Both the position numbers and the translations under genes were made by a program. The notes beneath the pieces were generated by a model, which had not been told where the DNA came from, did no database searches, and saw only the letters and a list, made by a program, of their open reading frames with translations. From a virus: a stretch of 64,000 nt of DNA. This document shows, piece after piece, positions 1-20,657 of the stretch (position 1 is its first letter; the number at the start of each line of letters is the position of its first letter). Location of the stretch: IMG/VR virus record IMGVR_UViG_3300045988_159027, one strand, 5' to 3'.

Positions 1-2
1 AT

Positions 3-791
3 ATGGAGCAGACGAGTGAGAAAACGTGCAGGGTGTCTTTCCTTCCGGTGTTTATGGAAATCGGGCAGGGAGACATCAACCAGTGGAATAATTCACGTGC
101 CGGCACGCTGGCCGAGCTGGCCACTACCCTCTCCTATTGGGATTACATGGACGGCGAGCAGATGCAGGCGGACACCGTTTCGCTTCCTTCTCCCCTTACC
201 CTGAACATGAAGTATGGAGCGCATCATGTGTACTTCCTGGCTCACAGCAGTACCGGAGGAAGTATGGAAGGCATGAAATATACTCCTGAGAAAGTAACTG
301 AGACTTTCTGGCAGGATTTTTCTCTTCAAGTGGACGAGAATATGGCTTCGAGTCAGGAACTGCAAATGAAGCGCGTAGTAAGCCGTGCCATGATTACCGT
401 GAAAGATGCGTTTCCTGCCTCGGTGAAATCGGTACGGATGACGGTAGGCGGTCATCTTCGCACGCTGGATGTGACTACCGGAAACGGTGACGCAGATTCC
501 GCATCCGACTATACGATTACATGGGAGATAGGCGACGAGTATGCGGGCCGTAGCGGGCTTTATTTCTCCGTGTTTACCTTCACTCCTACCGAGTCGGAAG
601 AATTTGACGTGACGCTGAAAATAGAGGCTTTGGGAGCCGACGGGAAAATGCTTTACGGTGCACAGGCTTCCAGCGTTCCGCTTCTGAGGAACCGGTGCAC
701 AAACGCCATCTGCCGTCTGTTCAGTGGAAATACAGGAATCACTTTTTCTGATCCGGACGACTGGAATCCGGCCATTGAGATAGAAATGTGA
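3..791 (+). CDS. fimbrillin-like (Mfa2/FimB-type) beta-rich protein, C-terminal part; 5' end outside window
   Basis: ORF open at window edge. The tail ...SSVPLLRNRCTNAICRLFSG resembles the conserved C-terminus of Bacteroidales Mfa2/FimB-type fimbrial subunits (recalled, not searched). Confidence 0.45.
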   Translation: MEQTSEKTCRVSFLPVFMEIGQGDINQWNNSRAGTLAELATTLSYWDYMDGEQMQADTVSLPSPLTLNMKYGAHHVYFLAHSSTGGSMEGMKYTPEKVTETFWQDFSLQVDENMASSQELQMKRVVSRAMITVKDAFPASVKSVRMTVGGHLRTLDVTTGNGDADSASDYTITWEIGDEYAGRSGLYFSVFTFTPTESEEFDVTLKIEALGADGKMLYGAQASSVPLLRNRCTNAICRLFSGNTGITFSDPDDWNPAIEIEM

Positions 792-808
792 CATCATTCA
801 AAAAGCGA

Positions 809-839
809 AGGGCAGAGAAGCTTTTGCTCCCCTGCCCTT
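809..839. terminator. hairpin between convergent genes (AAGGGCAG ... CTGCCCTT)
   Basis: 8-bp perfect stem between the stop at 791 and the stop of the minus-strand gene at 862. Confidence 0.5.
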
Positions 840-861
840 TCGGTGTATGAATTGTGCGGAA

Positions 862-1362
862 TTATTTCCCCACGATGTCTTTGTAGTATTTGTCAATGAA
901 CTCCTGCGCGGCTACATTCAGCAGGTCGATGACAAACACCAAGGTATCTTTCTTTTCCTTGTTACGGCCTTTGTTCATGCTTTTCTTAATGTCTTCCAGC
1001 TTCTCCAGCATGTCTTCTTCCAGATAGACATTCCGCATGATGCGTCCCTCTTTTTCATCTTTTCTAATTCTTTTTCGTATGCCGTTTATTTTCCGTTCTA
1101 CTGCGGGTGATTCGCTTTTCACGGATTCTTTATCGGGCGCAGCCTCTTGTTCCGGACGGATATTTTCCTCTTCCTGGTTATTTGCTTCAACACATGAGTT
1201 TTCAGCAGTGAAGGTAGCAGGAGATTCTTCCGTCTTTTCTTCTTCCTTTTCCTGAGTCGCAGCACTCTCCTCCCCTGCCTTCTCCGCGTTGGCGCGTGCT
1301 TCCTCAATACCCTGCCGAGCATCGAGCATTGTTTCATTCAGGTTGAATCGTTTTTTAGCCAT
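862..1362 (-). CDS. small acidic ParB-like / centromere-binding protein candidate (RHH-like C-terminus)
   Basis: Starts 12 nt downstream of the parA stop on the same strand. Has a long E/K-rich low-complexity centre. The C-terminal RNVYLEEDMLEKLEDIKK looks like a strand-helix (ribbon-helix-helix) start. Confidence 0.5.
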   Translation of the reverse strand: MAKKRFNLNETMLDARQGIEEARANAEKAGEESAATQEKEEEKTEESPATFTAENSCVEANNQEEENIRPEQEAAPDKESVKSESPAVERKINGIRKRIRKDEKEGRIMRNVYLEEDMLEKLEDIKKSMNKGRNKEKKDTLVFVIDLLNVAAQEFIDKYYKDIVGK

Positions 1363-1373
1363 AATCGTGTGTT

Positions 1374-2156
1374 TTACTGGTTATCTAATCGTGATAGAAT
1401 CTCTTTTGCCAGCTCCATGTAGTCGGCAGCTCCCGTGCAGTTGGGCGCAAAATCGAACACGTTCATGCGCTGCGCAGGCGATTCGGCCAGCTGAATGTTT
1501 GTGCGGATGGTGGTATTGAACACCTTCCCAGGGAAATTCTGATTCATCTGTTCGTATGCCTGACGGTGAAGTGACAGACGTTTGTCGTAGCGTGACATGA
1601 TATAACCCAGGATTTCAAGTTTGGGATTGACCATATTTTTGATTTCTTCGTATTTTGCGGTAATTAGGCCCATCCCATCCAGGGCAAATACTTCGCAGTT
1701 GATAGGAATCAGCAGGTAGTCAGAAGCTACCATCGCATTTACAGAAACTACTCCGAAATTTGGTGGACAGTCAATCAGGATAAAATCATAGTGGTCTTTC
1801 AGCTTATCCAGCATCAAGCGAAGAATAAATTCACGTCCTGTTCGGCTCACCAGTTCCTGCTCGCACTTATAAAGGTTTGGGCGTGAGGGGATGAAGTCGA
1901 AGCTTTCTTCGTTTTCGTTTTCGCATAGCACGCATTCCATGATGTCTGCGTTTCCTGTCATCGCATCGTAAAGGGTTTTACCATCCTTTTCCGTGGCCAG
2001 ACGGAATCCCATCATTTTAGATGCGTTACCCTGTGCGTCGGCATCTATTACCAGCACACGTTTACCAAGAGAATGTAAGGCTTTTGCCAGATTGACGGTG
2101 GTAGTGGTCTTCCCTACTCCACCCTTACAGTTGAATGAAGAAATTGTAATTGCCAT
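1374..2156 (-). CDS. parA: ParA/MinD-family partition ATPase
   Basis: Deviant Walker A SSFNCKGGVGKTTTTVNLA, then VLVIDADAQGNAS and ILIDCPP. Start moved to the ATG at 2156 (MAITISS...). Confidence 0.9.
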   Translation of the reverse strand: MAITISSFNCKGGVGKTTTTVNLAKALHSLGKRVLVIDADAQGNASKMMGFRLATEKDGKTLYDAMTGNADIMECVLCENENEESFDFIPSRPNLYKCEQELVSRTGREFILRLMLDKLKDHYDFILIDCPPNFGVVSVNAMVASDYLLIPINCEVFALDGMGLITAKYEEIKNMVNPKLEILGYIMSRYDKRLSLHRQAYEQMNQNFPGKVFNTTIRTNIQLAESPAQRMNVFDFAPNCTGAADYMELAKEILSRLDNQ

Positions 2157-2261
2157 ATCAAATGTTTTTGTTTTATTACACTGCAAAGATAGTCGTTTTT
2201 TTCATTTTCGTCATAAATACAGAAATATTTTTATGCAAAAATGTAAATATTCAAATGTGTA

Positions 2262-2665
2262 AACGTATAAAAGTATTTTTGAATAAAAATATAAAAGTAT
2301 TTTTGCGTAGATACATAAAATAATAATAGTATAAATAAATAAAAGCATAGAAACATAAAAACATAAAAGTATTTTTATATAAACATACTTTTGTGTGGAA
2401 ATACAAAATAGATGAGAGAAAGATATTTTAGTACAAAATCATGGAAGTATTAACGTATAAAAGAATAATTGAGTAAAAGTATAAAAACATAAAAGCATAA
2501 AAGTATTAAAGAATAAAAATATCTACTTTCAAATATACATATATGCAAAAGAATAATAATGTTTTAATACAAATGAATGAAAATATAAAAGCATGAAATA
2601 ATAAAACAGTAAAAGTATTTTTATATAAAAGCATAAAAGCATGTTTGAATAAAAGTATTTATTAT
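2262..2665. repeat. A/T-rich iteron array upstream of parA (candidate centromere or origin iterons)
   Basis: Core AAAAG[TC]AT occurs directly at 2269, 2293, 2341, 2365, 2475, 2491, 2499, 2587, 2611, 2627, 2635 and 2651, and inverted at 2385. Four copies extend to YATAAAAGTATTTTT. Confidence 0.7.
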
Positions 2666-2716
2666 AAATCAGATAATCAATTAGTTTCAAAGTTTGCTTA
2701 TGTGCGGTAAAAACAT

Positions 2717-2724
2717 TATATTTG
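2717..2724 (+). promoter_or_regulatory. canonical Bacteroides -7 box TATATTTG
   Basis: Exact TAnnTTTG match. No credible ORF downstream. Confidence 0.35.
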
Positions 2725-2824
2725 CAAAAAAATTGAGCATGAAAATGTTCTTTGTTTTATTACATCTGGATGGGGAACAGTGGTTCTTCATCCTTTTTCT
2801 TTTTGATATTCAGAGAGAATAGGA

Positions 2825-2832
2825 TATATTTG
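2825..2832 (+). promoter_or_regulatory. canonical Bacteroides -7 box TATATTTG
   Basis: Exact TAnnTTTG match about 150 nt upstream of the terminator at 2978-3010. Confidence 0.35.
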
Positions 2833-2977
2833 CATCATCATGAGAAAAATAGTAACCATGTTATTGCACACGGTGGTGTGAGTTATTTGTTATTGTGAAT
2901 TAATGTGTTAAGATTACATACTCATTTCTATGTAAATAGATTTGAACATACATGTTTTTTATTAATAGTTTATTGAG

Positions 2978-3010
2978 CGCGCTTCCCTGTGAAGGGAGGT
3001 GCGTTTTTTT
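2978..3010 (+). terminator. rho-independent terminator
   Basis: CGCGCTTCCCT-gtga-AGGGAGGTGCG forms an 11-bp stem (two G-U pairs), followed by T7. Confidence 0.6.
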
Positions 3011-3045
3011 GTCCTTCATTACCATATTAACCTTGTATATCTTTG
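3004..3045 (+). promoter_or_regulatory. phage late-promoter motif, copy 1
   Basis: T7-GTCCTTCATT (3011-3020), N17, then TATCTTTG (3038-3045). ATG at 3064. Confidence 0.6.
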
Positions 3046-3063
3046 TACCAAAACAAACGCAAG

Positions 3064-3327
3064 ATGAAGAAACCGACCAAACGTCTGCTCTGGACGGAGG
3101 CGTACAAGCTGATGAACGCCCGCACTCCAGACGGGAAAAATAAGCCGTTCGACATACGTTTTGTGTGTAAGGACGGAACGATAAGCGAATGTTACAACGT
3201 GCAGCGTGCCGTTTCGTACAACCGCGAAAAGGGATACCGTAAACTGGTAATGCCAAACGGAGATTTCCGTTACGTGTACGACGTACTTATTCTGCAGATT
3301 AACGACACAAAGATATTGGTTAAGTAG
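3064..3327 (+). CDS. hypothetical small basic protein
   Basis: First ATG of the track ORF 3043-3327, 19 nt after the -7 box. Stops 4 nt before the portal ATG. Confidence 0.6.
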   Translation: MKKPTKRLLWTEAYKLMNARTPDGKNKPFDIRFVCKDGTISECYNVQRAVSYNREKGYRKLVMPNGDFRYVYDVLILQINDTKILVK

Positions 3328-3331
3328 TTAT

Positions 3332-5065
3332 ATGGCGACAAACACAAAAAATACAAACCGTAAGAAGTCAAACCCGGGAATAAAGGAGTTCAGAGGAAAA
3401 GTGACTTCACTCGTAGACCGTGGATACCAGTATATCGGCATGGCCCGCGTGTCGGAAATCCCGTCTGTATCTTCCTCGGAAATGATGAAAGGGGGAGGGG
3501 CTATCGGCGGGCTGCCCATTCAGGGCACGTTCAATATCTTCGACAGCAAACAGTCGAATCCGGTGCCGGTCAGCAATGCCGGAACACCCGGTCTGGGTTA
3601 CATTCCCTGGGGACCGGAGAACATGCTTCCGAACACTATCTACAAGCTGGTAGGCAGTCTGCCGTACACGGCAACCGCCATCAAATATATTATTGACCTG
3701 ACCGTAGGGCTCGGGCCGCAGCTTATGTACCGATGGTCGCGCTATGTAAACAGTACGGTAAAGACTGAGCTGATTCCCTTCAAGGATGCCGGACTGCTGA
3801 TTCGCAACCGCATCATGGAGATTCAGGCACAGATTGACCAGCAGAAAGCAGGAAGCGGCGAAGAGCAGGGTGGGGAAGGCACAATCACCTGGTCGCAGGC
3901 CGTCTCCGGAGAGGAGAAGAAAGATACCGCACAGGTTGGGACACCGGAATACGAGCTGAAACAGCTTCGTGAAGACTATCGCACCTGGGAAGAGACAGAC
4001 AAGGAATGGGACAAGTTCTGCGAAAATAACAATCTGGAACTTCACTACCTGAAGTGCATGACAGACGACGCTCACATGGATATTTATTTCCCGACCATCG
4101 GGCTAAGCATCGGACGGAAGGACCAAGAGTGGGACCCGAAAATTGTCAAGTTAGGAAACATTCCGGCGGTGTGCTGCCGCATGGAGGAAATGGACGAACG
4201 GATGCGCATCAACTACGTGTATTATGCGGAGAAGTGGAGAAAGGATGCCACGCCAAAGCTGGAAAGAAAAGATGTGGTGGCCTATCCCACACTGATGCCG
4301 GAAAATATGCTTACGGAGCTTCGCCGTCAGGTGGAAAAGAGTAAGAACCGTCCTCCGAAGAAACGTACCACCTGGTTCTGCTGCCCAAGCTATTACCCTT
4401 CGATGCTGAAACCTTATTACCCGCAGCCGGCCTGGTGGAGTATCTTCCCGTCGATGACTTACGATTACGCCACGACATTGATTACCGACAAGGCCATGGC
4501 CCGACAAAATGCGACCATGTGGGGGAAAATGATTTTCATCAACAACGAATACCTTCGTGCGATGTTCGATGAAATGGGAGCGGATACTACCGAAGCGAAA
4601 CAAGCTGTACGTGACAGTATCTATAAGAAGGTGAATGAGTTCCTTCAACGCCGCGAGAACAACGGGAAAACTATCTGTCTGGACTCGTTTGTAGGTCCTG
4701 ACGGAAAGACGATGCAGCATGCGGTGGAAATTGTGGATGTGCCACAGCTGACAAATTCCAGGGATTTAAAAGAGGAGTTGTCCGAAATCTCAAGCGTGGT
4801 GTTCTTTGCCATAGGGGTTCACCCTTCTTTGATTGGAAGCACACCCGGGAATAGCGGAAGCACCGGAGGTACCTACATGCGCGAATTGCAGTTACTCAAG
4901 CAAAACCAGCTTTCTACCCGGCAGCGCATTTATCTGCGGTTCCTGAAGAATATCTATACATTCAACAAATGGGACAAGCACGGAGAAATAGTCATCCGTC
5001 AGCAGACATTTACCACGCTCGACCGTAGCGCAACCGGCACAGAAGAAACGGAATCTACACTATAA
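3332..5065 (+). CDS. portal protein (probable)
   Basis: 577 aa, no Walker A. The C-terminal region ...FFAIGVHPSLIGSTPGNSGSTGGTYMRELQ... is portal-like (recalled pattern). First large gene behind a late promoter. Confidence 0.55.
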   Translation: MATNTKNTNRKKSNPGIKEFRGKVTSLVDRGYQYIGMARVSEIPSVSSSEMMKGGGAIGGLPIQGTFNIFDSKQSNPVPVSNAGTPGLGYIPWGPENMLPNTIYKLVGSLPYTATAIKYIIDLTVGLGPQLMYRWSRYVNSTVKTELIPFKDAGLLIRNRIMEIQAQIDQQKAGSGEEQGGEGTITWSQAVSGEEKKDTAQVGTPEYELKQLREDYRTWEETDKEWDKFCENNNLELHYLKCMTDDAHMDIYFPTIGLSIGRKDQEWDPKIVKLGNIPAVCCRMEEMDERMRINYVYYAEKWRKDATPKLERKDVVAYPTLMPENMLTELRRQVEKSKNRPPKKRTTWFCCPSYYPSMLKPYYPQPAWWSIFPSMTYDYATTLITDKAMARQNATMWGKMIFINNEYLRAMFDEMGADTTEAKQAVRDSIYKKVNEFLQRRENNGKTICLDSFVGPDGKTMQHAVEIVDVPQLTNSRDLKEELSEISSVVFFAIGVHPSLIGSTPGNSGSTGGTYMRELQLLKQNQLSTRQRIYLRFLKNIYTFNKWDKHGEIVIRQQTFTTLDRSATGTEETESTL

Positions 5066-5103
5066 CATACATTTTTCTTCTTCTTTAGGTTTTATTCACA
5101 GAA

Positions 5104-5143
5104 AAAAATCCCGGCAAAACTTCTGATTTGTCGGGATTTTTGT
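5104..5143 (+). terminator. rho-independent terminator after the portal gene
   Basis: AAAAATCCCGGCAAA / TTTGTCGGGATTTTT forms a 15-bp stem with one G-U pair. Confidence 0.75.
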
Positions 5144-5164
5144 TGATTTTGGCTCAAGTGTTTA

Positions 5165-5259
5165 TTAATAGATTTTTCAGTGGCGTAGTATCGCCACTCC
5201 AGTCGCGCTTAATAGATTTTTTGGTGGCGATACTAAGCCACTGAACTCGCGTAACTACG
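5165..5259. repeat. structured repeat element A (two 44-bp tandem units, each TTAATAGATTTTT plus a hairpin)
   Basis: AGTGGCG-tagtat-CGCCACT lies at 5179-5198 and GGTGGCG-atacta-AGCCACT at 5223-5242. Positions 5181-5216 match 60171-60206 at 32 of 36 nt. Confidence 0.7.
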
Positions 5260-5569
5260 ATTTTTCTTCATCTTTGCTTTTTGAATCTTTATTTTCCGGC
5301 TGTTTTTCATGGCTTGTGTTCCCTTGAATGGCGTTTAAAAGATTGATAATCAATCTGTGCTCAATCCGCTTTATCATCAGGAACTGGGTGCATGTCTTGG
5401 CTATCTGTGCAATGATGAAAGAAAGCATCAATATAATAGAGATGAAAAAATTGTACAACCAGTCCCTTGTTTCAGTCCCGTTAAAATATGAAAAAACAGA
5501 AAAGGCTATTTGAGCACATACGAAAATAGGGAAAATAAAGTTGATTGCTTTTAAGATTTTATCTTTCAT
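5255..5569 (-). CDS. small membrane protein
   Basis: Two or three hydrophobic helices and a K/E/D-rich tail. Last gene of the leftward operon. Confidence 0.6.
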   Translation of the reverse strand: MKDKILKAINFIFPIFVCAQIAFSVFSYFNGTETRDWLYNFFISIILMLSFIIAQIAKTCTQFLMIKRIEHRLIINLLNAIQGNTSHEKQPENKDSKSKDEEKS

Positions 5570-5608
5570 AATCTGTTTGTATTTTTATGTATAAATAAAT
5601 GTATAAAA

Positions 5609-6016
5609 TTACTGTTCTATTTCCACACTCAGATAGGGCATTCCGCCTGGTAGCATTGGCCATATCTCCGCGTCTGGTGTAAGCATCCGCATCTGTTTTG
5701 AAGCGAGTCCAAGCAGGCAAAGCTTTTCTACCTCTGTATGGAATCCTGTCCATAGTTGCCCGTCTTTGGTAGAACACGCCTGAAGGAAAGAGGCTCCATC
5801 GCCTGAGCCGGGAAAGAATCCGTCGGGCAGTTGTGAAAGCATTTCGCGTATCTCGTGCCGGTGCACCTCGATGCGTTCCGGATGGAATCCGACTTTTACT
5901 GTAGGGTTCTGAATGGAGTTCACAAACAGATAGAGGTTTTTCCCTTTACATTCTTCGCTGCGAAACATGCAGTCGGCGAAAATTCGGTCTACATTTTCAG
6001 TATTCAGTTCGGTCAT
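5609..6016 (-). CDS. hypothetical protein
   Basis: 135-aa ORF. Its ATG overlaps the stop of the upstream small ORF (ATGA). Confidence 0.65.
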   Translation of the reverse strand: MTELNTENVDRIFADCMFRSEECKGKNLYLFVNSIQNPTVKVGFHPERIEVHRHEIREMLSQLPDGFFPGSGDGASFLQACSTKDGQLWTGFHTEVEKLCLLGLASKQMRMLTPDAEIWPMLPGGMPYLSVEIEQ

Positions 6017-6177
6017 GGCTCTGTGATTTTAATGTCGTCAAGGTTATTGAAATCAACGATGATCTTTGTAATAACGTACACATATTCTTCTCTGCTTTCA
6101 CCTCCCAGATAGGTGGCTGTATTTATTTCGTCAATATCCGAATGAGGGAAAGCGCTTTTGAAAAGTTCTTTCAGCAT
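6013..6177 (-). CDS. hypothetical small protein (54 aa, not in the ORF track)
   Basis: Hand translation gives MLKELFKSAFPHSDIDEINTATYLGGESREEYVYVITKIIVDFNNLDDIKITEP. It fills the gap between neighbours with overlapping start and stop. Confidence 0.5.
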   Translation of the reverse strand: MLKELFKSAFPHSDIDEINTATYLGGESREEYVYVITKIIVDFNNLDDIKITEP

Positions 6178-6752
6178 ATTGAAGTTTTTTTCAGAGGCTG
6201 TAAGGTGGTGCCCGTAGTTTGTAACAGACGATACATCTTCAACATTTCCACCTGATTTTTTATTTCCTTTTCGCGACTGGAAGGGAAGATACCCCCTCTC
6301 AATGTGGCGGTCATTTTGTACCGGTCGAAAATAATTTCATCTATATTTCCGGTTCCTTCGTTGTGCCACCATTCATCAAATGATTCAGTGATAAGTTTCA
6401 ACCTTTCCCTTGCATCCTCGTTCGATACCTTCATCCCGAGCTGTTTTCTTAGTTCCCGGTTCTCATGGTTGAGTGAGCGTATTTCCTTGATGTATTCATT
6501 GTATTTTTTATTCAGGCTGTCTTCATATCCAAGTTCGTTAAGGATGTCTATTGCATTCTTATGAAACAATTCAAGCAATGCTTCTTTTGTACCCTCTTTC
6601 AGGCTCCCTTCTTTTAGCATGTAAAGCAATAAAGAGATTCTTTCGTTTATTTTCTTCTGTTTCTCTGTCAGCTTTTCGTAAAGCATTCCGTCCGGATCAA
6701 GAACTGGAGTATTATCATCGTTCTTTTTAAAGTTTATTTTTCTTTCTTCCAT
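6171..6752 (-). CDS. hypothetical coiled-coil protein
   Basis: 193-aa ORF in a tightly packed operon. Confidence 0.65.
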   Translation of the reverse strand: MEERKINFKKNDDNTPVLDPDGMLYEKLTEKQKKINERISLLLYMLKEGSLKEGTKEALLELFHKNAIDILNELGYEDSLNKKYNEYIKEIRSLNHENRELRKQLGMKVSNEDARERLKLITESFDEWWHNEGTGNIDEIIFDRYKMTATLRGGIFPSSREKEIKNQVEMLKMYRLLQTTGTTLQPLKKTSIC

Positions 6753-6765
6753 GGTTTATTTGTTT

Positions 6766-7008
6766 TTATTCCGTATTTAAAATTTCATAGGTTTTATTAT
6801 CCCCCTGATAGTCATCTAGCGGACACCAGTCTGGGATTTCTATTGGTGCATCAATAATTTTATTTACGTCATTCCGCTTTACCACCCTATTTGTGGGTGA
6901 ACATAGAATGATATATCCAAAACTAGCGCCTTCCTGGTTGTATTTCCGGTGGAAAACGCATTCTTCGCAATGCGAAACAATTGTGCTGATTTTCTTTTTT
7001 TCTGCCAT
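6766..7008 (-). CDS. Cys-rich small protein, paralogue of 7014-7316
   Basis: CxxC ... C ... IPDWCPLD motif shared with the neighbour. Confidence 0.65.
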   Translation of the reverse strand: MAEKKKISTIVSHCEECVFHRKYNQEGASFGYIILCSPTNRVVKRNDVNKIIDAPIEIPDWCPLDDYQGDNKTYEILNTE

Positions 7009-7013
7009 AGGTT

Positions 7014-7316
7014 CTAGTTATTATATCTCACCATAGGTACTTCACATTGTGAATCACGTAGGTTTTTTTCTTTAAGCCCGTAAATTTCATTCTCTCCGGT
7101 GTAGCAATCAAGCGGACACCAGTCCGGGATAAAGTTACTCATATTTATCTTATCTGTGTGATAAATATAATCATCACTAATGATTATTTGGTCTTTTTCT
7201 TTGCATACAAGCACTGAACCGGTTGAGCCTTGAGAAGAGTCGTACCTTTTTGAGTGCGGACACTTCAGGCAGTCGGTAATAACTGCACTTATTCTGGGTT
7301 TAACTTTATTGTCCAT
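7014..7316 (-). CDS. Cys-rich small protein, paralogue of 6766-7008
   Basis: CLKCPH ... FIPDWCPLD motif. Confidence 0.65.
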   Translation of the reverse strand: MDNKVKPRISAVITDCLKCPHSKRYDSSQGSTGSVLVCKEKDQIIISDDYIYHTDKINMSNFIPDWCPLDCYTGENEIYGLKEKNLRDSQCEVPMVRYNN

Positions 7317-7327
7317 ATTACTTATTT

Positions 7328-7969
7328 TTATTCCGGTAGTGGGTTATCAAATATTTCTTTCAGTTTATTCATTGATTCCTGAATACGTTTTTCAAGGTTT
7401 TCCGTGTAGTGGTCATCATTTATCGGATTGGGGATAAATGTTGTTTCTACTCCGTAACGACCTATGTCAAGAGGGAGAGGGAAAAACGCAACAGTATCTA
7501 CTGTCGTTCCCGGGATTAAATTGACGGTAATGCTTACGCCTTTAATGTCTTTCACCATCGTAAACCAGACGCTGTGATTCTTACACGTTGCGAGGTCCTT
7601 TATCAGTCCTTTCTCTTCCAGTGGTTTCAGGTATTTCGTAATGTATAAATCGGTGTTTACTGATTTTCTGTTTAGTTCATCATTAATGGATTTATTTGCA
7701 GCCATCAGTCTTTGATAAATAAACCTCCGTTCTGGTGATCTAAATGTTTCCTCTACTGACACATCGGACTTAAAAAATGTGATATGGTCTTCATCCGCCT
7801 CTGTTTCGATAATGACTTTCATTGAGTTTTCTCGTGACGGCTCATTAAGTCTGAACATGATGCGCCATCTGCATGGAATAACCCGCAAGTCTGTGATAAT
7901 TCCTTTCTCTTCCAGCGGTTTCAGGTATTCAGACACATATTTTTCTATTGAATAATCGTTTGCGGTCAT
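7328..7969 (-). CDS. two-repeat protein, paralogue of 7980-8642
   Basis: Starts MTANDYSIEKYVSEYLKPLEEKG. An internal repeat reads ITKYLKPLEEKGLIKD. Confidence 0.7.
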   Translation of the reverse strand: MTANDYSIEKYVSEYLKPLEEKGIITDLRVIPCRWRIMFRLNEPSRENSMKVIIETEADEDHITFFKSDVSVEETFRSPERRFIYQRLMAANKSINDELNRKSVNTDLYITKYLKPLEEKGLIKDLATCKNHSVWFTMVKDIKGVSITVNLIPGTTVDTVAFFPLPLDIGRYGVETTFIPNPINDDHYTENLEKRIQESMNKLKEIFDNPLPE

Positions 7970-7979
7970 AGGCTTATTT

Positions 7980-8642
7980 CTATTTGATAAATTGTTCTTT
8001 TATATACTTTATTCCTTGAAGGATATATTGTTCAATTGTCTCTGTGTAATGCGGGTCGTTCTTCGGGTTTAGAAGTCCGGCCCTGTACAATGGCCTGTAT
8101 TTGCAAAATCCAGTAGTGGGATAAAAGAATACGCAGTCTTCATTTTTACCTGGTTTTAAATGCGCGGATATTTCTTTCCCATTTATGTTTTCTACCAGCG
8201 TAAACCAAATATCTCTCTCACAGTCTTCATGAACGTCCTTTATAAGACCTTTTTCTTTTAGCGGTTTTAAGTATTTGGTGATATATTCATTTCCTTCCTC
8301 AAGAACAACTCGATAGCTCTTTTCATCATACTGTTTCACCCATTTCATTTCACCTTCTAACCGTTCTTTAGCATCTGTAATGAAATAGAGTATATTTTTT
8401 AGTTCATCGTATGAAACCTGGTAACTAATCGCAGAAAAGAACAAAGTAAACTTGATTGTGTTTGAGTTGTCTTTTTTGTTTATTTCTGCTTTTATTGGAA
8501 GTCCTTTTATCAGCTCCTTCAATTGGAAACGTATCCTATTCAGATTAGGGTAAATTCGTATTCTGTATATGGTTCCTTTCTCTTCCAGCGGTTTCAGGCA
8601 TTCAGACACATATTTTTCTATTGAGTAATCGTTTGCGGTCAT
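7980..8642 (-). CDS. two-repeat protein, paralogue of 7328-7969
   Basis: Starts MTANDYSIEKYVSECLKPLEEKG. An internal repeat reads ITKYLKPLKEKGLIKD. Confidence 0.7.
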   Translation of the reverse strand: MTANDYSIEKYVSECLKPLEEKGTIYRIRIYPNLNRIRFQLKELIKGLPIKAEINKKDNSNTIKFTLFFSAISYQVSYDELKNILYFITDAKERLEGEMKWVKQYDEKSYRVVLEEGNEYITKYLKPLKEKGLIKDVHEDCERDIWFTLVENINGKEISAHLKPGKNEDCVFFYPTTGFCKYRPLYRAGLLNPKNDPHYTETIEQYILQGIKYIKEQFIK

Positions 8643-8652
8643 GGTAAATATG

Positions 8653-9261
8653 TTATTTCAGTAGTTTTTTAATCTTTGCTACGAGTTTTGACCAGGCTTT
8701 TTGACAGATTTTGGAAATTCCTTTTTGATTTATTTTTTCGTCATAATTGCCTGTATTAATATTTCTGATAGACTCCCTGTACTGAGGATAGTCAAGCATG
8801 TTAAGCAGACGGTTATCGCTGGATATAAATTTCTGTTTGTCCCACATTTCATGCAAGACTTCTTCACTGAATACTCCTTCCCAAAGTAATATATCTTTCA
8901 GTGCATCAATGTTTATTTCCTTGACTCCGTACTGGAAACATTTATACTGGAGGTAATTGGCATACATTACGGCGATGGCCGGACGGTCTATAAGTGTACT
9001 TATTATAAGTGCTGAAGGATAATCTATCTTGTAAGGAAAATTTTCAGCGACAAGATTTATCATGAAAGAAGTGTAATCAGACTGCGAAGAAAGTTCTTTA
9101 TGTGCATTCAGGAAATTACCAACAATTTCATGATTCATTTTGAAAATGGAAAGTAGTTTCCTTTGTGTATCATTTATTTCTATTTTTGATTTCCCATCCA
9201 GTTCCTCACACCATTTCTGAATGGCGTCTGGACCGAGGTCTTTCTGATGTTTAAATTCCAT
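8653..9261 (-). CDS. hypothetical protein
   Basis: 202-aa ORF in the operon. Confidence 0.65.
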   Translation of the reverse strand: MEFKHQKDLGPDAIQKWCEELDGKSKIEINDTQRKLLSIFKMNHEIVGNFLNAHKELSSQSDYTSFMINLVAENFPYKIDYPSALIISTLIDRPAIAVMYANYLQYKCFQYGVKEINIDALKDILLWEGVFSEEVLHEMWDKQKFISSDNRLLNMLDYPQYRESIRNINTGNYDEKINQKGISKICQKAWSKLVAKIKKLLK

Positions 9262-9281
9262 AGCAATGTTGTTTTGGGGAT

Positions 9282-9503
9282 TTATTTCTGTTTTTCGGTT
9301 TCTTGGTAATCACTCCACTCTCTTATCTCTGCATTACAGCAGGGGCACAAAACATATAGCAATGTTTTTTCTATTCTTGTAAATGGGAACTCCCCATCAC
9401 TCCTGGATTGCACGTCCCTTTTATCGAAAGTAAACTCGCACCCGCAGAACTGGCAGGTCGCTATTTTCTTTTTGTATTTCCCTTCTTTGATAATTTCAAT
9501 CAT
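9282..9503 (-). CDS. zinc-ribbon small protein
   Basis: Contains CQFCGC ... CPCC. Confidence 0.6.
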   Translation of the reverse strand: MIEIIKEGKYKKKIATCQFCGCEFTFDKRDVQSRSDGEFPFTRIEKTLLYVLCPCCNAEIREWSDYQETEKQK

Positions 9504-9589
9504 ATTGTTACAGGTTACGACAACACCACATACATGCTGCCAAAAACAGATAATATAATTTGGTTTTACTCATGTTTTTTTAGTTTTGA

Positions 9590-10081
9590 TTAATATCCGT
9601 TTTCACATGCTTTGCAGCAAAATTTCTCACGATTTCCAGCATCGGAATCAGTGATTTCGTATTTACGACCGCACTGCTGGCAGGTATATTCAATCACGTC
9701 CGACTGATAGTATTTGCAGGAATTTTCCGTTTTTACTTCCTTCCCGAAATTGGTACATTTCCCGTTGTCATAACTGTTGCATGTTGCGCAGGTGGGGGAG
9801 AAGTTTTGGGATTTTTTTAGAAGTTCCGGATTGTCATGGATTTTTCCCCAATATTCAATATCAATACTGTTGAAAATATGCCTGCGAATTTTTGCAGCTT
9901 TTTTAGCGTATTGCATAATGTCTTCGATAGGACGGCACATTCTTCGTTGAATATCAAAACCAATTTCTTCGATTCTGTTAAAACAATTCACTTTTATGTA
10001 ACATAGCCCGATTTCCTCTACTTCTGCAAAGACAAATATGTCGCTTAAAAAGAATGGATTAGGTGTCTCATATATTTTCAT
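9590..10081 (-). CDS. Cys-rich protein (several CxxC pairs)
   Basis: Start moved to MKIYETPNPFF. The C-terminal half has CATC, CQQCG and CCKAC. Confidence 0.6.
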   Translation of the reverse strand: MKIYETPNPFFLSDIFVFAEVEEIGLCYIKVNCFNRIEEIGFDIQRRMCRPIEDIMQYAKKAAKIRRHIFNSIDIEYWGKIHDNPELLKKSQNFSPTCATCNSYDNGKCTNFGKEVKTENSCKYYQSDVIEYTCQQCGRKYEITDSDAGNREKFCCKACENGY

Positions 10082-10265
10082 ATATTCTTTCTTTAAATTT
10101 AAAAACAAAAAATGCAATAATAATAATAAGTAGGATAAACCATATCACAGCAAGCGCACTAATCTGTTTTACCTTTCGGAAACGATAAATGTCAGTTCTA
10201 ACTAAATAGTGCAAATATCCGGATAGAATAAGCCATACGGTAAGCAATATAATCCCAATAATCAT
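10068..10265 (-). CDS. small two-helix membrane protein
   Basis: Reads MIIGIILLTVWLILSG ... VIWFILLIIIIAFFVF. Confidence 0.6.
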   Translation of the reverse strand: MIIGIILLTVWLILSGYLHYLVRTDIYRFRKVKQISALAVIWFILLIIIIAFFVFKFKERIYENI

Positions 10266-10705
10266 GGTTTCGCTTTTAAGTATTCTTTGTTTAGGTGATT
10301 ATTGTCTATAAGCCATCTAATCATTGAAATAGCGGTATCAAAAGAACCAATGTTCATTTCCTGGTGTTTCATATCATATCCAAGTTCCTCGTATGAAATA
10401 AACCAGAAGGAACCGTCACTATTCATTGCAAAATCAGCATTTGGGCGGTTACTTTGAGTAATTGACTTTGGCATAATTTCCAGAAGCCGGTCAAGACTCC
10501 ACGCAGGAGTAATGTCTCGGTTCATGCGAACAGAGAACCAGTGTTCAGGATCAATACCTTCACATATAGTATGAAGGTGATATTCTCCATATTCAGGTGT
10601 CTTACTTTTTTCAAGGTACATATCGGCTGTGCCTGGTTTTAATCCCAGCTCTAACAGCTTCCGTGACTGGTTTATGTTTGTTCCTATTTGTGATTTGAAG
10701 TCCAT
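10262..10705 (-). CDS. hypothetical protein
   Basis: 147-aa ORF with overlapping start and stop with its neighbours. Confidence 0.65.
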   Translation of the reverse strand: MDFKSQIGTNINQSRKLLELGLKPGTADMYLEKSKTPEYGEYHLHTICEGIDPEHWFSVRMNRDITPAWSLDRLLEIMPKSITQSNRPNADFAMNSDGSFWFISYEELGYDMKHQEMNIGSFDTAISMIRWLIDNNHLNKEYLKAKP

Positions 10706-10708
10706 ATC

Positions 10709-10933
10709 TTATTCCTCCACTTTTACGAAAATTACATCGGTTTTATCTTCCCTCTCATTTTTACTGCATCCACCGCAAATTTTCTTTAATGCGGGTAGCA
10801 TAATGTCGCAATCAAAATAATATGGATTATAGAATATACATTTACAGCATCCTTTGCCTTCCTCTACTCTCAGCTTTACCAGTCCGCACTGGAATGTTTC
10901 TCCGACTTTAAATTCTTTCTTCGTCATAATCAA
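10709..10933 (-). CDS. Cys-rich small protein, paralogue of 56982-57197
   Basis: Shares KKEF.vGE.FQCGLVKL.V and REDKTDviFVKVEE with the plus-strand copy. Confidence 0.7.
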   Translation of the reverse strand: MIMTKKEFKVGETFQCGLVKLRVEEGKGCCKCIFYNPYYFDCDIMLPALKKICGGCSKNEREDKTDVIFVKVEE

Positions 10934-11184
10934 TCTTCGTCTTTAGGGAACAAACTCTCAATATCTTCACTGGTATAATAGCTTAGCACATCTTCAAAAT
11001 GGGAAATGCAAATACCGGTATTTTGTGCCACACAGTCTACATAAGTTTCAAAATCTACTTTCAATATGTCATCAAACACCTCCTTGCAATTGGAATAGTC
11101 TATCCACACCATAAGACCGTAATTTTCTTGCCATTCATGGGTGTCTACAAGTTCTTGTAGCCTTTTTAATTTCTTGAAATCCAT
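10930..11184 (-). CDS. hypothetical protein
   Basis: 84-aa ORF in the operon. Confidence 0.6.
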   Translation of the reverse strand: MDFKKLKRLQELVDTHEWQENYGLMVWIDYSNCKEVFDDILKVDFETYVDCVAQNTGICISHFEDVLSYYTSEDIESLFPKDED

Positions 11185-11187
11185 ATC

Positions 11188-11388
11188 CTATTTATTTTCA
11201 TTGTTCTTTAATCGAATTTGTTCCTGAAGCTGTTCAGCATTCTTTTTCTGAAAGTTCGGACACTGATATACATCTCCAAACGCAATTAGTACCATGACAG
11301 GGAATAGCATCCCATGCTGGCAACTTCTTCCAAATGCGTCAGCAAATGTGCAGTCTTCGCACCGCCCGTTTACGTCATACGCTGCCAT
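11188..11388 (-). CDS. Cys-rich small protein
   Basis: 66-aa ORF with CEDC ... C ... C. Confidence 0.55.
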   Translation of the reverse strand: MAAYDVNGRCEDCTFADAFGRSCQHGMLFPVMVLIAFGDVYQCPNFQKKNAEQLQEQIRLKNNENK

Positions 11389-11389
11389 A

Positions 11390-11560
11390 TTATTTTTCTT
11401 TTTTATCGTTTTGTATTTCAGATAATTTATTAATCACTAGGTATGTAAGCATAAATTCTATGAAAAGGATGTCGTAATCCAAACCGGAGAAATAGCTCAT
11501 TGCCATAACGAAAGCCACAAGACCTACAAAAATTGCAGTAGCAATAAAATACTCTTTCAT
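11390..11560 (-). CDS. small membrane protein (56 aa, not in the ORF track)
   Basis: Hand translation gives MKEYFIATAIFVGLVAFVMAMSYFSG... It fits exactly between the stop at 11563 and the ATG at 11388. Preferred over the track ORF 11430-11615. Confidence 0.5.
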   Translation of the reverse strand: MKEYFIATAIFVGLVAFVMAMSYFSGLDYDILFIEFMLTYLVINKLSEIQNDKKEK

Positions 11561-11562
11561 CA

Positions 11563-12045
11563 TTAATACCTGAATTTACCGAACTGAATAACTGCCATCG
11601 GCTGACTGAAGTCATAACCCCGGAACCACTCTTTCCAGTCGTCTACCGACAGACCATCGTTGTCCGCAAGTTCTTTCAGTTCCGGATATTTACCGTCGAT
11701 GTCAAAGAAATTGAAAGAGGCACATCCGTCGCGATCCGGCTGGAAGGTAAGTTTCTGAATACCTGTTCCTGATTCCGCAGTCAGACAGCCTATTGTTATT
11801 TGCCTGCTGAAATACGGACGGCCTTCCCACTGACGGACGGAGATAACCGATTCACCTTGCTGCACCTCGTGTATGCGTTTTGCCCAAAGCGGGAAGTTGG
11901 TCCGGATGGTGTGTCGTTTTTCGCCGGAAAGGAATTTCTTACGGAATCCGGTAGGGTTTCCCGGCCGGGGATGTGTGGTCGGGAAAGATTGCGAAAGCAT
12001 GAGCACGTAAGTCTTTTTCATAACTTTTTTAGATTTCATGTTCAT
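11563..12045 (-). CDS. hypothetical protein, first gene of the leftward early operon (possibly ASCH/PUA-like)
   Basis: 160-aa ORF. GEKRHTIRTNFPLWAKRI...ISVRQWEGRPY is weakly reminiscent of ASCH domains. Confidence 0.6.
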   Translation of the reverse strand: MNMKSKKVMKKTYVLMLSQSFPTTHPRPGNPTGFRKKFLSGEKRHTIRTNFPLWAKRIHEVQQGESVISVRQWEGRPYFSRQITIGCLTAESGTGIQKLTFQPDRDGCASFNFFDIDGKYPELKELADNDGLSVDDWKEWFRGYDFSQPMAVIQFGKFRY

Positions 12046-12076
12046 CGTTTTATTACATTTTACCTACCGCAAAAAT

Positions 12077-12110
12077 AACAATTTTAAACCGAAATCGCAT
12101 CAAAATTATT
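12077..12110. promoter_or_regulatory. dispersed 34-bp palindrome, site 1
   Basis: AACAATTTTAA-accgaaatcgca-TCAAAATTATT. Overlaps the leftward -7 boxes. Confidence 0.6.
12101..12108 (-). promoter_or_regulatory. -7 box TAATTTTG of the leftward early promoter
   Basis: Exact TAnnTTTG on the minus strand, about 55 nt upstream of the ATG at 12045. A second box, TATTTTTG, lies at 12077..12070. Confidence 0.5.
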
Positions 12111-12140
12111 TCTAAATTTCATAAAACCTCCGATTTTTCG

Positions 12141-12180
12141 TTTTTGTCCTTCAAACTACCGAATCAGACCGCTAACTTTG
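12141..12180 (+). promoter_or_regulatory. phage late-promoter motif, copy 2
   Basis: T5-GTCCTTCAAA (12146-12155), N17, then TAACTTTG (12173-12180). Confidence 0.55.
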
Positions 12181-12198
12181 AGGAAAAACACAAAGACT

Positions 12199-13224
12199 AT
12201 GTTAGTAACGAAAACCGAAGAAATCAGGGCATACGTGCCCACCAGCGTGTACAGCGGCGACCAGTCACTTCTCACAATCATGGAAGAAACAGAAGAGAAC
12301 ATTCTTGTGCCGATACTTGGGCGTAAACTCTACGAAAAGGTATGCGGAGAATACGATAAGGCTATGGAAGAGTATGGCGGAGTGACGGCGGCCTACGTGG
12401 GAAAAGAAAGCCTTACACCCGAAATCCGTCTGATACGTGCCTGCCAGCTTCCGGTGGTCTACTTGTCGCTGGCCAACAGCACCGGCATTCTCACGGTGAG
12501 TCTGAACGACGGGGGTGGACTGAACCAGGTGTACACCGACGGGTACGACAAGGCCGACGAGAAATCCGTGAGCCGGTTTGAGCGCGATGCGTATTTCAAG
12601 GGCCGTCGCGGAGTGGACCGTCTGCTGGTATTCCTGGAAGAGGATGCGTGCAGTCAGGCCCCCGTGTTTGCCGATTTGTGGCGCGAAAGCCGGTATTTCT
12701 ACCTGCAGGGCGACTTGCTTTTTACTACCGCCATCGAGATGAACCGTTTTCTGGACATTAACGAAAGCCGGGAGAAATTCATCTCAATGTTGCCTGACAT
12801 ACGCTATTGCCAGAGCGCTTACATAGAGCCGGAGATAGGGGAGGAGCTGACCGATGCGCTGGTGAAATGGTGTACGCGCTCGCTAAAGTCCGACCTTTTC
12901 ACGGGCGAAGACAAGGATGCTATAAATGCGGTGTGGCAGAAGGCGGTGGACTGTCTGCGCATGGCGCTGGCACTCTACATCGAGTCTCGCCGTCCGGAAA
13001 AACAGCGCAAGTACAGCGAAAACGAGGCAGCTTATTCCATGACAAAGGCCCGCAAATTTATCTCCAACCATCAGGATTCTTTCGGAGAGTTTATCAAGGA
13101 TTCTCCGCTGTATGTGCCTCCGCTCACTGAAACAACCGGACCGGACAAGCAGCCCATATTCGATTATGACAATCAGGACAACGCCATCTTCGTCATGCGT
13201 CCGCAAGCCTTCACTAGGCACTGA
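12199..13224 (+). CDS. virion-associated hypothetical protein
   Basis: First ATG (MLVTKTEEIRAYV...) of the track ORF 12178-13224, 19 nt after the -7 box. Confidence 0.7.
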   Translation: MLVTKTEEIRAYVPTSVYSGDQSLLTIMEETEENILVPILGRKLYEKVCGEYDKAMEEYGGVTAAYVGKESLTPEIRLIRACQLPVVYLSLANSTGILTVSLNDGGGLNQVYTDGYDKADEKSVSRFERDAYFKGRRGVDRLLVFLEEDACSQAPVFADLWRESRYFYLQGDLLFTTAIEMNRFLDINESREKFISMLPDIRYCQSAYIEPEIGEELTDALVKWCTRSLKSDLFTGEDKDAINAVWQKAVDCLRMALALYIESRRPEKQRKYSENEAAYSMTKARKFISNHQDSFGEFIKDSPLYVPPLTETTGPDKQPIFDYDNQDNAIFVMRPQAFTRH

Positions 13225-13265
13225 TTTTTTGTCCTTCATTCCCAGTTGTCATATACCTAACTTTG
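13225..13265 (+). promoter_or_regulatory. phage late-promoter motif, copy 3
   Basis: T6-GTCCTTCATT (13231-13240), N17, then TAACTTTG (13258-13265). Confidence 0.6.
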
Positions 13266-13284
13266 GAGTATAAAGAAACGACAA

Positions 13285-14286
13285 ATGGATACGACAAACT
13301 ACCAGATACATCTTCCGGCCCTTCCCGACAGCTGGAACCGGCTGTCGACCGAAGAGCTGGAAGAGGTGAACAGACTTTACAAGCGTAAGGAGGCTATGGC
13401 TGCGGAAGGCGACGAGGAACGTGCCGACCGCCTTTTCAAGCTGAAGTGCTTCATGCTTTTTCTCGGACTGAAAATCGTGCGGCGCACCGTGACCGATGAA
13501 AATGGTGAAACGGTGTTTCTCTTCCGGCGCAAAGGGATTCGCCACCTGTTTGAGCGCATTCCCATGCGGGCATGGCAGGTGGACCAGTGGATAGACCAGA
13601 AGCTCGGTTTCCTGGACAATCCTTTTGCACGCACCGTCACTCCCTACGGAATTATCCTCCTTCGTATGGGAACCCTTCGTCTGAAAGCACCGAAAGATGT
13701 GATGTCCGATGTCAGCTTTGCGCAGTACCAGTCCGCACAGAATCTGCTTATCATGTACTGGGATGCACAGAAGGTTCTACAGACGCTTGTAAGGCGAAAA
13801 TCGACCCATGCCGCCATCCGGATGCAGTTGCGCCGCATGAAACAGGCACGATGCCGGTTTCTGGCCACGCTGTTTAATGAATCCGTGCGCGAGACGGGAG
13901 AGATACGCGAAGGACGCTACCTGCGCAAGTGTAAGCGCCGCGTGTGGTCGTTCAACTCCGGGCAGATACAGAAAAACGCCCGCTGGTTTAGCATGGTAGA
14001 AGCCCGCATGTTCCCCGTCATGGTGCAGTATTTTCAGAGCGTGCAGGAAGCCTACGCGCGCATGTATCCGGAGCTGTTCACGCCTAACGGGAAAAAGAAC
14101 GGACGGCAGAACCCTATCAAGATAGAGGTGGAAATGATTAACAACATCATGAAGTATCAGGGATTCAGTGACTACGACGCAGTGTACGACAGCGAGGCGG
14201 TCCGCATCCTGGGAATTATGAATGCCATGGCTAAGGAAGCTAAGGAAATTGAGAAAATGAATCAGAAATACAGAAAAGGGAAATGA
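13285..14286 (+). CDS. hypothetical late protein
   Basis: 333-aa ORF that overlaps the next gene by 4 nt. Confidence 0.7.
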   Translation: MDTTNYQIHLPALPDSWNRLSTEELEEVNRLYKRKEAMAAEGDEERADRLFKLKCFMLFLGLKIVRRTVTDENGETVFLFRRKGIRHLFERIPMRAWQVDQWIDQKLGFLDNPFARTVTPYGIILLRMGTLRLKAPKDVMSDVSFAQYQSAQNLLIMYWDAQKVLQTLVRRKSTHAAIRMQLRRMKQARCRFLATLFNESVRETGEIREGRYLRKCKRRVWSFNSGQIQKNARWFSMVEARMFPVMVQYFQSVQEAYARMYPELFTPNGKKNGRQNPIKIEVEMINNIMKYQGFSDYDAVYDSEAVRILGIMNAMAKEAKEIEKMNQKYRKGK

Positions 14287-16244: not shown

Positions 16245-16248
16245 AGAT

Positions 16249-17409: not shown

Positions 17410-17420
17410 TACATACGACT

Positions 17421-18793: not shown

Positions 18794-18795
18794 GT

Positions 18796-19797: not shown

Positions 19798-19807
19798 AAC
19801 GATAATC

Positions 19808-20074: not shown

Positions 20075-20085
20075 AATTTAAAATT

Positions 20086-20577: not shown

Positions 20578-20657
20578 CATGTTTCTATCCCATTGACAGG
20601 CCCGCGGGAGGAGTAAGTTTACTTACCGCTTGATGGAATGATACTATATTTTTATAC

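Follow-up and report, generated by a model that had tools for sequence, protein, structure and literature searches.

IMG/VR virus record IMGVR_UViG_3300045988_159027, a stretch of 64,000 nucleotides (nt) that we call the window, raises the question of what a gene for a ParA-type ATPase, a gene for a small partner protein, and an array of short AT-rich repeats are doing side by side in the genome of a tailed phage. We consider these elements to be, very probably, a genuine partition module made up of ParA, adaptor, and centromere. It is likely that this type Ib-like cassette, together with an iteron origin and its replication initiator (Rep), keeps a phage of about 108 kb as a low-copy extrachromosomal plasmid prophage in Bacteroidales; that the module serves plasmid-prophage maintenance is, by a small step, the less certain statement, and still a probable one. 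Positions are those of the window unless a contig is named.

ParA, its partner and the octamer array

The cassette has five parts.

862-1362, minus strand: partner gene, encoding a putative centromere-binding protein of 166 amino acids (aa); starts 11 nt downstream of parA
1374-2156, minus strand: parA, encoding a 260-aa deviant-Walker-A ATPase of the Soj/chromosomal-ParA type, without an N-terminal helix-turn-helix (HTH)
2259-2392, plus strand: array block A, register-0 ATAAAAGY units at 2259-2372 and the single inverted copy at 2385-2392
2433-2522, plus strand: array block B, about 12 consecutive 8-bp units
2577-2658, plus strand: array block C, in phase with block B (144 bp = 18 x 8)

Both open reading frames named in the original prediction are present on the same strand, separated by a gap of 11 nt, and the second does encode an acidic protein (isoelectric point [pI], 5.0). 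The ParA motifs are intact: KGGVGKT (residues 11 to 17, Walker A), DADAQG (A'), and ILIDCPP (Walker B). Pfam AAA_31 matched residues 5 to 183 (expectation value [E], 1.4e-54) and CbiA matched at 7e-24, with no N-terminal extension; PHROG 164, "ParA-like partition protein," matched at 3.8e-67. The best PDB structures were the Myxococcus xanthus chromosomal ParA 8ray (1e-46) and Thermus Soj 1wcv (4e-42), and there was no ParF-named chain among the 17 PDB matches at an E of ≤1e-10. Models for SopA and RepA matched only the ATPase core and fell far under their cut-offs. The nearest cellular ParAs are those of Bacteroidales chromosomes, at about 42 to 43% identity. In comparisons with two diverged relatives (contigs L080 and L083), the ratio of nonsynonymous to synonymous substitution rates (dN/dS) of parA was 0.055 to 0.06, which indicates strong purifying selection.

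The DNA upstream of parA (2160-2700) is only 18% G+C. Within it, at 2269-2658, the octamer AAAAGYAT occurs 13 times, 12 times on the plus strand and once inverted at 2385, exactly as first counted. Across the whole window there are 25 copies, versus 8.5 ± 2.9 expected from dinucleotide shuffles. Counts of k-mers against mononucleotide shuffles were uninformative because homopolymers dominate them, and so the specific motif was simulated with Markov models. When trained on 2160-2700, models of orders 1, 2, and 3 gave means of 0.44, 1.16, and 3.4 AAAAGYAT, and at most 1 in 5,000 simulations reached 13 in that interval. The 12 direct copies fall in just two registers modulo 8, autocorrelation of the array peaks at lags of 8, 16, 24, and 32, and Tandem Repeats Finder reported periods of 8, 16, and 24. 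We read the array as about 400 bp of degenerate ATAAAAGY tandem octamers, with 35 to 40 positions of graded quality, and not as dispersed sites. These genes and motifs, the selection on them, and the array with its statistics are direct observations.

The array was kept in 38 close relatives, with 5 to 15 copies of AAAAGYAT each, and was also retained in the diverged L080 and L083. Variation across the close variants is concentrated at the G-Y positions of the octamers. Comparable redundancy and plasticity have been reported for parH of plasmid TP228 (PMC3130281).

When 18 to 25 members of its family were aligned, the partner showed a conserved plan, an N-terminal peptide and a basic C-terminal domain on either side of a variable acidic linker.

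Residues 1-32: invariant N-terminal peptide MAKxRFxLxETMxDAxxGIEEA
Residues 33-85: acidic disordered linker, variable among members
Residues 86-104: basic helix
Residues 107-160: strand-like RNVYL segment, then two helices (ribbon-helix-helix [RHH]-like)

The pI is 4.1 in the linker and 9.5 in the C-terminal domain. K3 and R5 of the N-terminal peptide are present across the family, and this Lys/Arg peptide is consistent with the motif by which adaptors such as ParB and ParG generally bind ParA (PMC12462528). AlphaFold2, run with a 25-sequence alignment, gave a predicted local distance difference test score (pLDDT) above 90 at about residues 110 to 160 and below 50 in the linker (33 to 80); the modelled topology is an extended RNVYL, a helix at 116 to 131, a loop, and a helix at 144 to 159, which suggests an RHH protomer modelled as a monomer. 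A second, shallower AlphaFold2 model was also made. Pfam RHH_1 aligned to the strand and first helix of several members below threshold (E of 0.0039, 0.033, and 0.12; 12.8 to 17.5 bits across the family versus a cut-off of 20.5), and one member matched the model of the HicB-like antitoxins, a family that carries an RHH DNA-binding domain, at 9e-4. Alignment of the partner to ParG, omega, and CopG by hhalign was register consistent at low probability, and helix 2 of omega aligned with the last helix of the partner (37% over 19 residues; E, 7e-4); this result is a lead only. The RHH-like C terminus that had been proposed is consistent with the predicted strand-helix-helix and the subthreshold RHH_1 matches, and the RHH fold is likely but unproven.

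Profile searches, proposed earlier for both proteins, assigned ParA to AAA_31 and PHROG 164; the partner had no family match in Pfam, PHROGs, or NCBIfam, and PDB sequence and profile searches with it returned nothing meaningful. Neither a ParB nor an HTH domain was detected in the partner by profile searches, and Pfam gave no ParG match even at an E of ≤10. The family is very small: a search of 1.84 billion proteins gave 20 representatives at an E of ≤1e-3. In each of the seven contexts examined, the partner gene follows a parA. The dN/dS of the partner gene (0.22 to 0.45 against L080 and L083) points to weaker selection than on parA, as expected because the linker is variable.

We propose the following mechanism. 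Partner dimers would bind the three blocks of 8-bp-phased ATAAAAGY repeats (2259-2658) through the RHH-like C-terminal domain and coat them cooperatively, giving a partition complex. This binding would probably also autoregulate the operon, since the candidate parA promoter is about 70 bp downstream of the array. The N-terminal Lys/Arg peptide, on its long acidic disordered linker, would contact nucleoid-bound ParA-ATP dimers and stimulate ATP hydrolysis, and the resulting ParA gradient would move and separate sister phage-plasmid copies by a diffusion ratchet. We infer the DNA binding, the RHH fold, the ATPase stimulation, the autoregulation, and the plasmid-prophage state.

The surrounding genome

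That the cassette lies in a tailed-phage genome, as originally stated, is confirmed by its neighbors. Among the proteins encoded in the window are a tape measure protein of 1,924 aa, PHROG 3267 tail proteins, and an endolysin (PHROG 435, 1e-45), as well as Rha, anti-repressor proteins, and a primase-type zinc-ribbon protein; inspection of parts of the genome identified no terminase, portal, or capsid gene there. About 40 IMG/VR contigs carry ParA (at least 92% identity) and the partner (at least 93% identity) between the same phage genes on both sides, and this synteny ties the cassette to the phage far more strongly than the sequence-box argument made previously. Another 21 contigs with the partner, several of them from human gut metagenomes, bring the total to about 60 cassette contigs. 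They cluster at 104 to 117 kb, the longest being 122.8 kb, and the distance from the cassette to the contig end varies; such contigs are to be expected of a complete genome of about 108 kb that is circular or circularly permuted. Structural and lysis genes occur together with Rep, iterons, and par on contigs of 105 to 112 kb. A GTDB scan with the window partner found no copy in 185,579 species-representative genomes, and we found no description of this phage lineage in the literature.

On the right of the cassette, an 87-aa and a 577-aa gene (3064-5065, plus strand) are always syntenic with it in the phage relatives L080, L083, and L084, with 70% identity in L084. Both lack matches in Pfam, PHROGs, NCBIfam, and PDB, and the one of 577 aa is possibly a structural protein, such as a divergent portal. 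The left flank, seen on contig L108 (1-10800), encodes a single-stranded DNA-binding protein (SSB), a DUF1599 nucleotide-modification protein, a DUF4494 protein, a C5 cytosine methylase, a radical S-adenosylmethionine protein, a flavin mononucleotide reductase, an ion-transport protein (ion channel), and a full-length glutathionylspermidine-synthase homologue (1e-136), which are unusual phage cargo.

The replication origin was found on contig IMGVR_UViG_3300045988_153635 (L001), which is 97% identical to the window over 1-2898 and reaches left of position 1.

L001 8315-8850: iteron origin, about 0.2 to 0.7 kb left of window position 1 and 1 to 2 kb beyond the partner gene

A run of about six direct 21-bp repeats (CGGAATCTTTGCACCTTTA..), at a spacing of exactly 21 bp, is followed by a 190-bp AT-rich spacer, about six inverted copies of the repeat (72-nt arms, 78% complementary), and two 23-nt repeats, TATTTTCCGTTTTTGGAAAATAT. 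Beyond them lie a Cro/cI-type HTH (HTH_3) gene and a gene for a 487-aa Rep with a C-terminal DnaA_N domain (4.4e-8); in relatives, Rep also gives weak Rep3_C or RepM signals. These repeats and Rep make up a textbook iteron origin with its initiator.

The name "iteron" that had been given to the octamer array does not hold, for the true Rep iterons are the different 21-bp repeats that lie next to rep just outside the window. Iteron origins have repeats of 17 to 22 bp, helically phased and beside rep, and the 8-bp array has none of these properties; the par operon and a 290-aa gene separate it from rep. The array as the replication iterons or origin was a candidate that we ruled out because of the separate 21-bp iteron origin beside rep. 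Since the array differs from the iterons in sequence, unit length, and position, a centromere/operator role is the natural assignment.

Relatives of the cassette outside the phage lineage place it on plasmid-like elements. A 32-kb contig (L086) has a ParA 63% identical to that of the window and, after it, a partner homologue of 160 aa (33% identical, with the tripartite plan conserved) and a Rep3_C/DnaA_N Rep. The same element is on the 64.6-kb contig NZ_CBVI010000112.1 (L104) of the cultured strain Bacteroides timonensis AP1, which, like other GTDB relatives, was recovered with an alignment of the partner subgroup. Its neighbors are genes for conjugation (DUF4134, a TraA-like ParA), insertion sequence elements, and an AraC regulator, with no phage genes. 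Contiguous parA, partner, and rep genes also occur on contigs of 122.6 and 78 kb from Bacteroidaceae rumen metagenome-assembled genomes (MAGs) and in a Prevotellaceae MAG. The Rep of these plasmid-like and MAG relatives is 33% identical to the phage Rep (E, 1e-88). Because of this backbone homology, we conclude that the phage carries a plasmid maintenance backbone native to Bacteroidales.

Every ParA/partner relative examined has 300 to 1,800 bp of repeat-rich DNA of 14 to 25% G+C directly upstream of parA. The dominant repeat, judged in the distant loci by inspection and k-mer counts, differs among relatives as follows.

Window, L083, and L080: partner identity 66-100%; dominant repeat ATAAAAGY(AT)
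L084: partner identity 44%; dominant repeat TGTAAATATAT-like
L086 and L105: partner identity about 33-36%; dominant repeat ATGAAAATATAA
L089: partner identity about 27%; dominant repeat GAAAGTATTAAAAT

A repeat that changes as the partner diverges suggests cognate centromere-adaptor pairs, of which this is the expected pattern. The conservation of pair and array, the adjacent origin and Rep, the backbone homology, and the phage context were, like the cassette itself, observed directly. In the plasmid-like relative L086/L104, about 1.8 kb upstream of parA (L086 1882-3720), between the TraA-like ParA conjugation operon and the par-rep backbone, is gene free and consists of AT-rich ATGAAAATRTAA-type repeats broken by short G/C-rich or poly-C/T islands.

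The remaining elements near the cassette are candidate promoters, boxes, and a terminator.

808-839, bidirectional: intrinsic-terminator-like hairpin (14-bp stem, 8 GC pairs, T-run)
2184-2191, minus strand: candidate Bacteroidota -7 box TATCTTTG (TAnnTTTG) for parA, about 25 nt upstream of the ATG
2672-2686, plus strand: GATAATCAATTAGTT box (GATAATCARTTAGTT), conserved in L080 and L083
2693-2696 and 2717-2724, plus strand: candidate rightward promoter, -33 TTTG and -7 TATATTTG, well spaced and just past the GATAATCAATTAGTT box
2672-2686, 60358-60372, and 60436-60450 (the last on the minus strand): GATAATCA[AG]TTAGTT box

TAnnTTTG is the established Bacteroides -7 promoter consensus, and TATCTTTG would be the parA promoter box; the array starts about 70 bp upstream of it and spans the interval from 70 to 470 bp upstream. 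The hairpin at 808-839, a strong one, closes both the parA-partner operon and the convergent 290-aa gene. Exact copies of GATAATCARTTAGTT are at 2672 and 60358, and an inverted copy with two mismatches is at 60436. Of the recurrence at 60.3 to 60.5 kb in the original prediction, it is therefore the GATAATCA box that holds; of the array core, one AAAAGTAT copy at 60455 is all that occurs there, no more than background. At 2672 and 60358, the box lies 6 to 8 nt ahead of TTTG, a possible -33 element. The GATAATCAATTAGTT box probably serves in the regulation of the divergent promoter, not in the centromere, and the recurring GATAATCA box suggests a regulator site common to rightward promoters.

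At both 2717 and 2825, a -7 box of Bacteroidota type (TATATTTGCA) precedes a terminator-like hairpin (2768-2793 and 2975-3006, respectively), and two short transcripts of about 70 and 170 nt, small RNAs or micro-open reading frames, are possible between the array and the 87-aa gene. This region (2717-3010, plus strand) is kept in L080 and L083 and has no Rfam match. Around the distant copies of the box, about 1 kb (60000-61045) is gene free, with a terminator-like hairpin at 60080-60130 and a GC-rich inverted repeat at about 60615-60690 (GAAAGGAGGGAAAGG...CCTTTCCCCTTTC); the stretch has no Rfam match and may be a structured RNA or a regulatory region. In the whole window, neither Rfam at gathering thresholds nor ARAGORN found an RNA gene.

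The proposed plasmid prophage and other explanations

The window has one recombinase, at the edge of the tail-fiber module, and none was found in about 10 kb left of the window.

21134-22273: tyrosine recombinase (Arm-DNA-bind_5, SAM_5, and Phage_integrase domains)

Half of 12 related contigs (L092 to L103) end 60 to 150 nt past the recombinase stop (at about window position 21078). The DNA past that point in the others has no homology to the window; L100, the only one of these that was annotated, again has a gene for a PHROG 3267 tail protein there. The pattern suggests a hypervariable or invertible tail-fiber module at 19800-22300, and a recombinase that fits fiber variation better than it fits an integrase at a prophage end. 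Contig breaks and hypervariability are what support the earlier proposal of an invertible fiber segment. No inversion sites could be mapped: a search for inverted repeats around the recombinase (12-nt seed) gave no convincing pair bracketing the segment (19.8 to 21.1 kb).

The plasmid-prophage lifestyle is argued from the ori-rep-par backbone, from its homology to plasmid backbones, and from the Cro/cI-type, Rha, and anti-repressor regulators, as well as from the lack of any copy in the 185,579 genomes and of any contig longer than about 123 kb. Several observations weigh against it, or against a partition role for the cassette. Among 32 distinct close variants, the array diverged faster than its flanks (0.089 versus 0.032 to 0.035 differences per site), and the octamer cores were only modestly better kept than the spacers (0.066 versus 0.097; circular-shift P of about 0.04). 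The RHH fold is not established, as no Pfam match was above threshold; Foldseek of both AlphaFold models of the partner against PDB gave nothing at an E of ≤0.001 (two matches at an E of about 6 to 7 with the first model and none with the second). The loop between the helices is unusually long, and at 166 aa the partner exceeds the classical type Ib centromere-binding proteins (46 to 113 aa). The tyrosine recombinase at 21134-22273 has an arm-binding domain, and the inspection for integrases covered all but about 30 kb of the genome. High k-mer coverage of some contigs could equally reflect lytic replication. In INPHARED, a blastn search with 800-3400 found no phage match, and in PLSDB, a megablast search with 1-20000 found no plasmid match, so that with the GTDB scan no isolate, plasmid, or phage record in these databases contains the element. 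Because of its absence from PLSDB and INPHARED, episomal carriage has never been seen directly, and the lifestyle, well motivated as it is, remains inferred.

The most serious alternative is that the phage is strictly virulent or pseudolysogenic and that ParA and its partner act during productive infection, for example by positioning replicating phage DNA or disturbing the segregation of the host chromosome, and not in stable inheritance. The absence of any observed lysogen or episome, from isolate genomes and PLSDB alike, would fit, as would the high coverage of some metagenomic contigs and the many genes for DNA metabolism (SSB, primase, methylase). We nevertheless regard it as unlikely, because the complete rep-iteron-par backbone is common to plasmid-like elements, because Rha, anti-repressor, and Cro/cI-type HTH regulators are present, and because a centromere array under a small centromere-binding protein is a device for low-copy inheritance with no known lytic role. 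Less probable again, to the point of being improbable, is an integrating prophage whose integrase is the recombinase at 21134-22273 and whose par genes are the relic of a plasmid ancestor or stabilize only the excised form. The recombinase does have the domains of Bacteroides integrases, and 6 of the 12 related contigs do end near it; the DNA past position 21078 in relatives is nevertheless that of phage tail proteins and not of a host, no contig exceeds about 123 kb, the 185,579 genomes contain no copy, and parA is under strong purifying selection.

The remaining two alternatives concern the array. That it is a replication element, either an unwinding region or an iteron set for a second and perhaps lytic origin, next to parA by chance, has about the same poor prospects as integration. 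Direct repeats in DNA of 18% G+C are found in many origins, and rep is less than 3 kb away. Set against this, the HTH and rep genes are directly preceded by a canonical iteron origin with a different, 21-bp repeat and an AT-rich spacer of its own, the units of the array are 8 bp long and not helically phased 17- to 22-mers, and the array stays immediately upstream of parA even where rep has another position, at a distance of 6 kb (L084) or just after the partner gene (L105). We give almost no credence to the notion that the repeats are mere low-complexity promoter DNA without a specific function: homopolymer-rich AT DNA does yield high k-mer counts even when shuffled, but a G-containing motif that is 4- to 30-fold overrepresented under Markov orders 1 to 3, with a 12:1 strand bias and an 8-bp register, is another matter, and analogous arrays accompany every relative of the parA-partner pair.

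The plasmid-prophage interpretation can be carried further, to a point where we put the chances as even. On this fuller proposal, the gut phage lineage of about 108 kb would consist of circular low-copy plasmid prophages that exchanged their backbone with Bacteroides conjugative plasmids, and the partner would found a new family of centromere-binding proteins restricted to Bacteroidales mobile elements, which reads an 8-bp-phased A-tract centromere and carries a ParB-like ParA-activating peptide on a long acidic tether.

Comparison with known systems

Phage-plasmids are well documented in Enterobacteria, Firmicutes, and Actinobacteria. For Bacteroidota, the sole proposal that we found in the literature is crAssphage, described as linear (PMC10983915). 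If the plasmid-prophage interpretation is true, the phage described here would be the second such case from gut Bacteroidota, and a mechanistically explicit one, with origin, initiator, centromere, ParA, and adaptor. It recurs in many human gut metagenomes and would help to explain how phages persist for long periods without integrating. It would be evidence, too, that Bacteroides plasmids and phages exchange modules, and its mini-replicon and partition cassette could supply parts for stable low-copy Bacteroides vectors. The partner family and its 8-bp-phased array offer a new testable example of how small adaptors, probably RHH proteins, build partition complexes with Soj-like ParAs.

P1, N15 (SopAB), and the cluster A mycobacteriophages (parABS) are temperate tailed phages that replace integration by plasmid replication and a ParA cassette (PMC7969092, PMC7157519). 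Their partition systems are type Ia or chromosomal type, with a ParB (HTH/CTPase), whereas the window system has no ParB domain and has its repeats upstream. The parallel with P1 drawn in the original prediction thus extends to the lifestyle and not to the type of partition: P1 ParAB-parS is type Ia, and its large HTH-ParA, its ParB, and its downstream parS are all missing from the window. What distinguishes the window cassette from type Ia is a ParA of only 260 aa without an HTH, a partner without a ParB domain, and upstream repeats.

Another close known system is the B. timonensis AP1/L086 element, which shares a homologous parA (63%), the partner (33%), a Rep3_C/DnaA_N Rep, and AT-rich repeats upstream of parA. 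It differs in having conjugation genes and no phage genes, and its ATGAAAATATAA repeats extend over about 1.8 kb.

In layout, the cassette corresponds to type Ib partition: a small ParA without an HTH, a non-ParB partner directly downstream, and short upstream repeats as the putative centromere. Within that type, pSM19035 delta-omega of Firmicutes pairs a ParA (delta) with an RHH protein, omega, which coats tandem 7-bp heptads upstream of promoters. Delta is distant from the window ParA (2oze; E, 4e-15), however, its repeats are 7 bp and not 8, and omega is a global regulator of a plasmid and not a phage protein.

The closest formal analogue is ParF-ParG-parH of TP228. There, parH consists of 12 ACTC boxes (11 direct and 1 inverted) with 4-bp AT spacers and an 8-bp period upstream of parFG; it adjoins an operator of eight more boxes, one RHH dimer binds each box, and the array doubles as operator (PMC3130281). 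The two systems share a small Walker ParA and, after it, a small partner whose N-terminal tail is flexible and whose C-terminal domain is of RHH type (predicted in our case), a centromere (putative in our case) upstream of the operon with an 8-bp period, and a strikingly similar box arrangement, 11 direct plus 1 inverted in parH and 12 direct plus 1 inverted in the window. The ParF/ParG-like assignment made at the outset therefore stands for the layout and fails for membership in the ParF and ParG sequence families. The window ParA is Soj/chromosomal-like and not ParF-like; the partner, outside the ParG sequence family, is 166 aa with a 50-residue acidic linker, versus 76 aa; the array is about 400 bp of ATAAAAGY, versus about 100 to 160 bp of ACTC; and the replicon is a tailed phage of a Bacteroidales host, whereas TP228 is an E. 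coli plasmid. What is new here is the host clade, the type Ib-like layout on a Soj-like ParA, and a partner family not described before.

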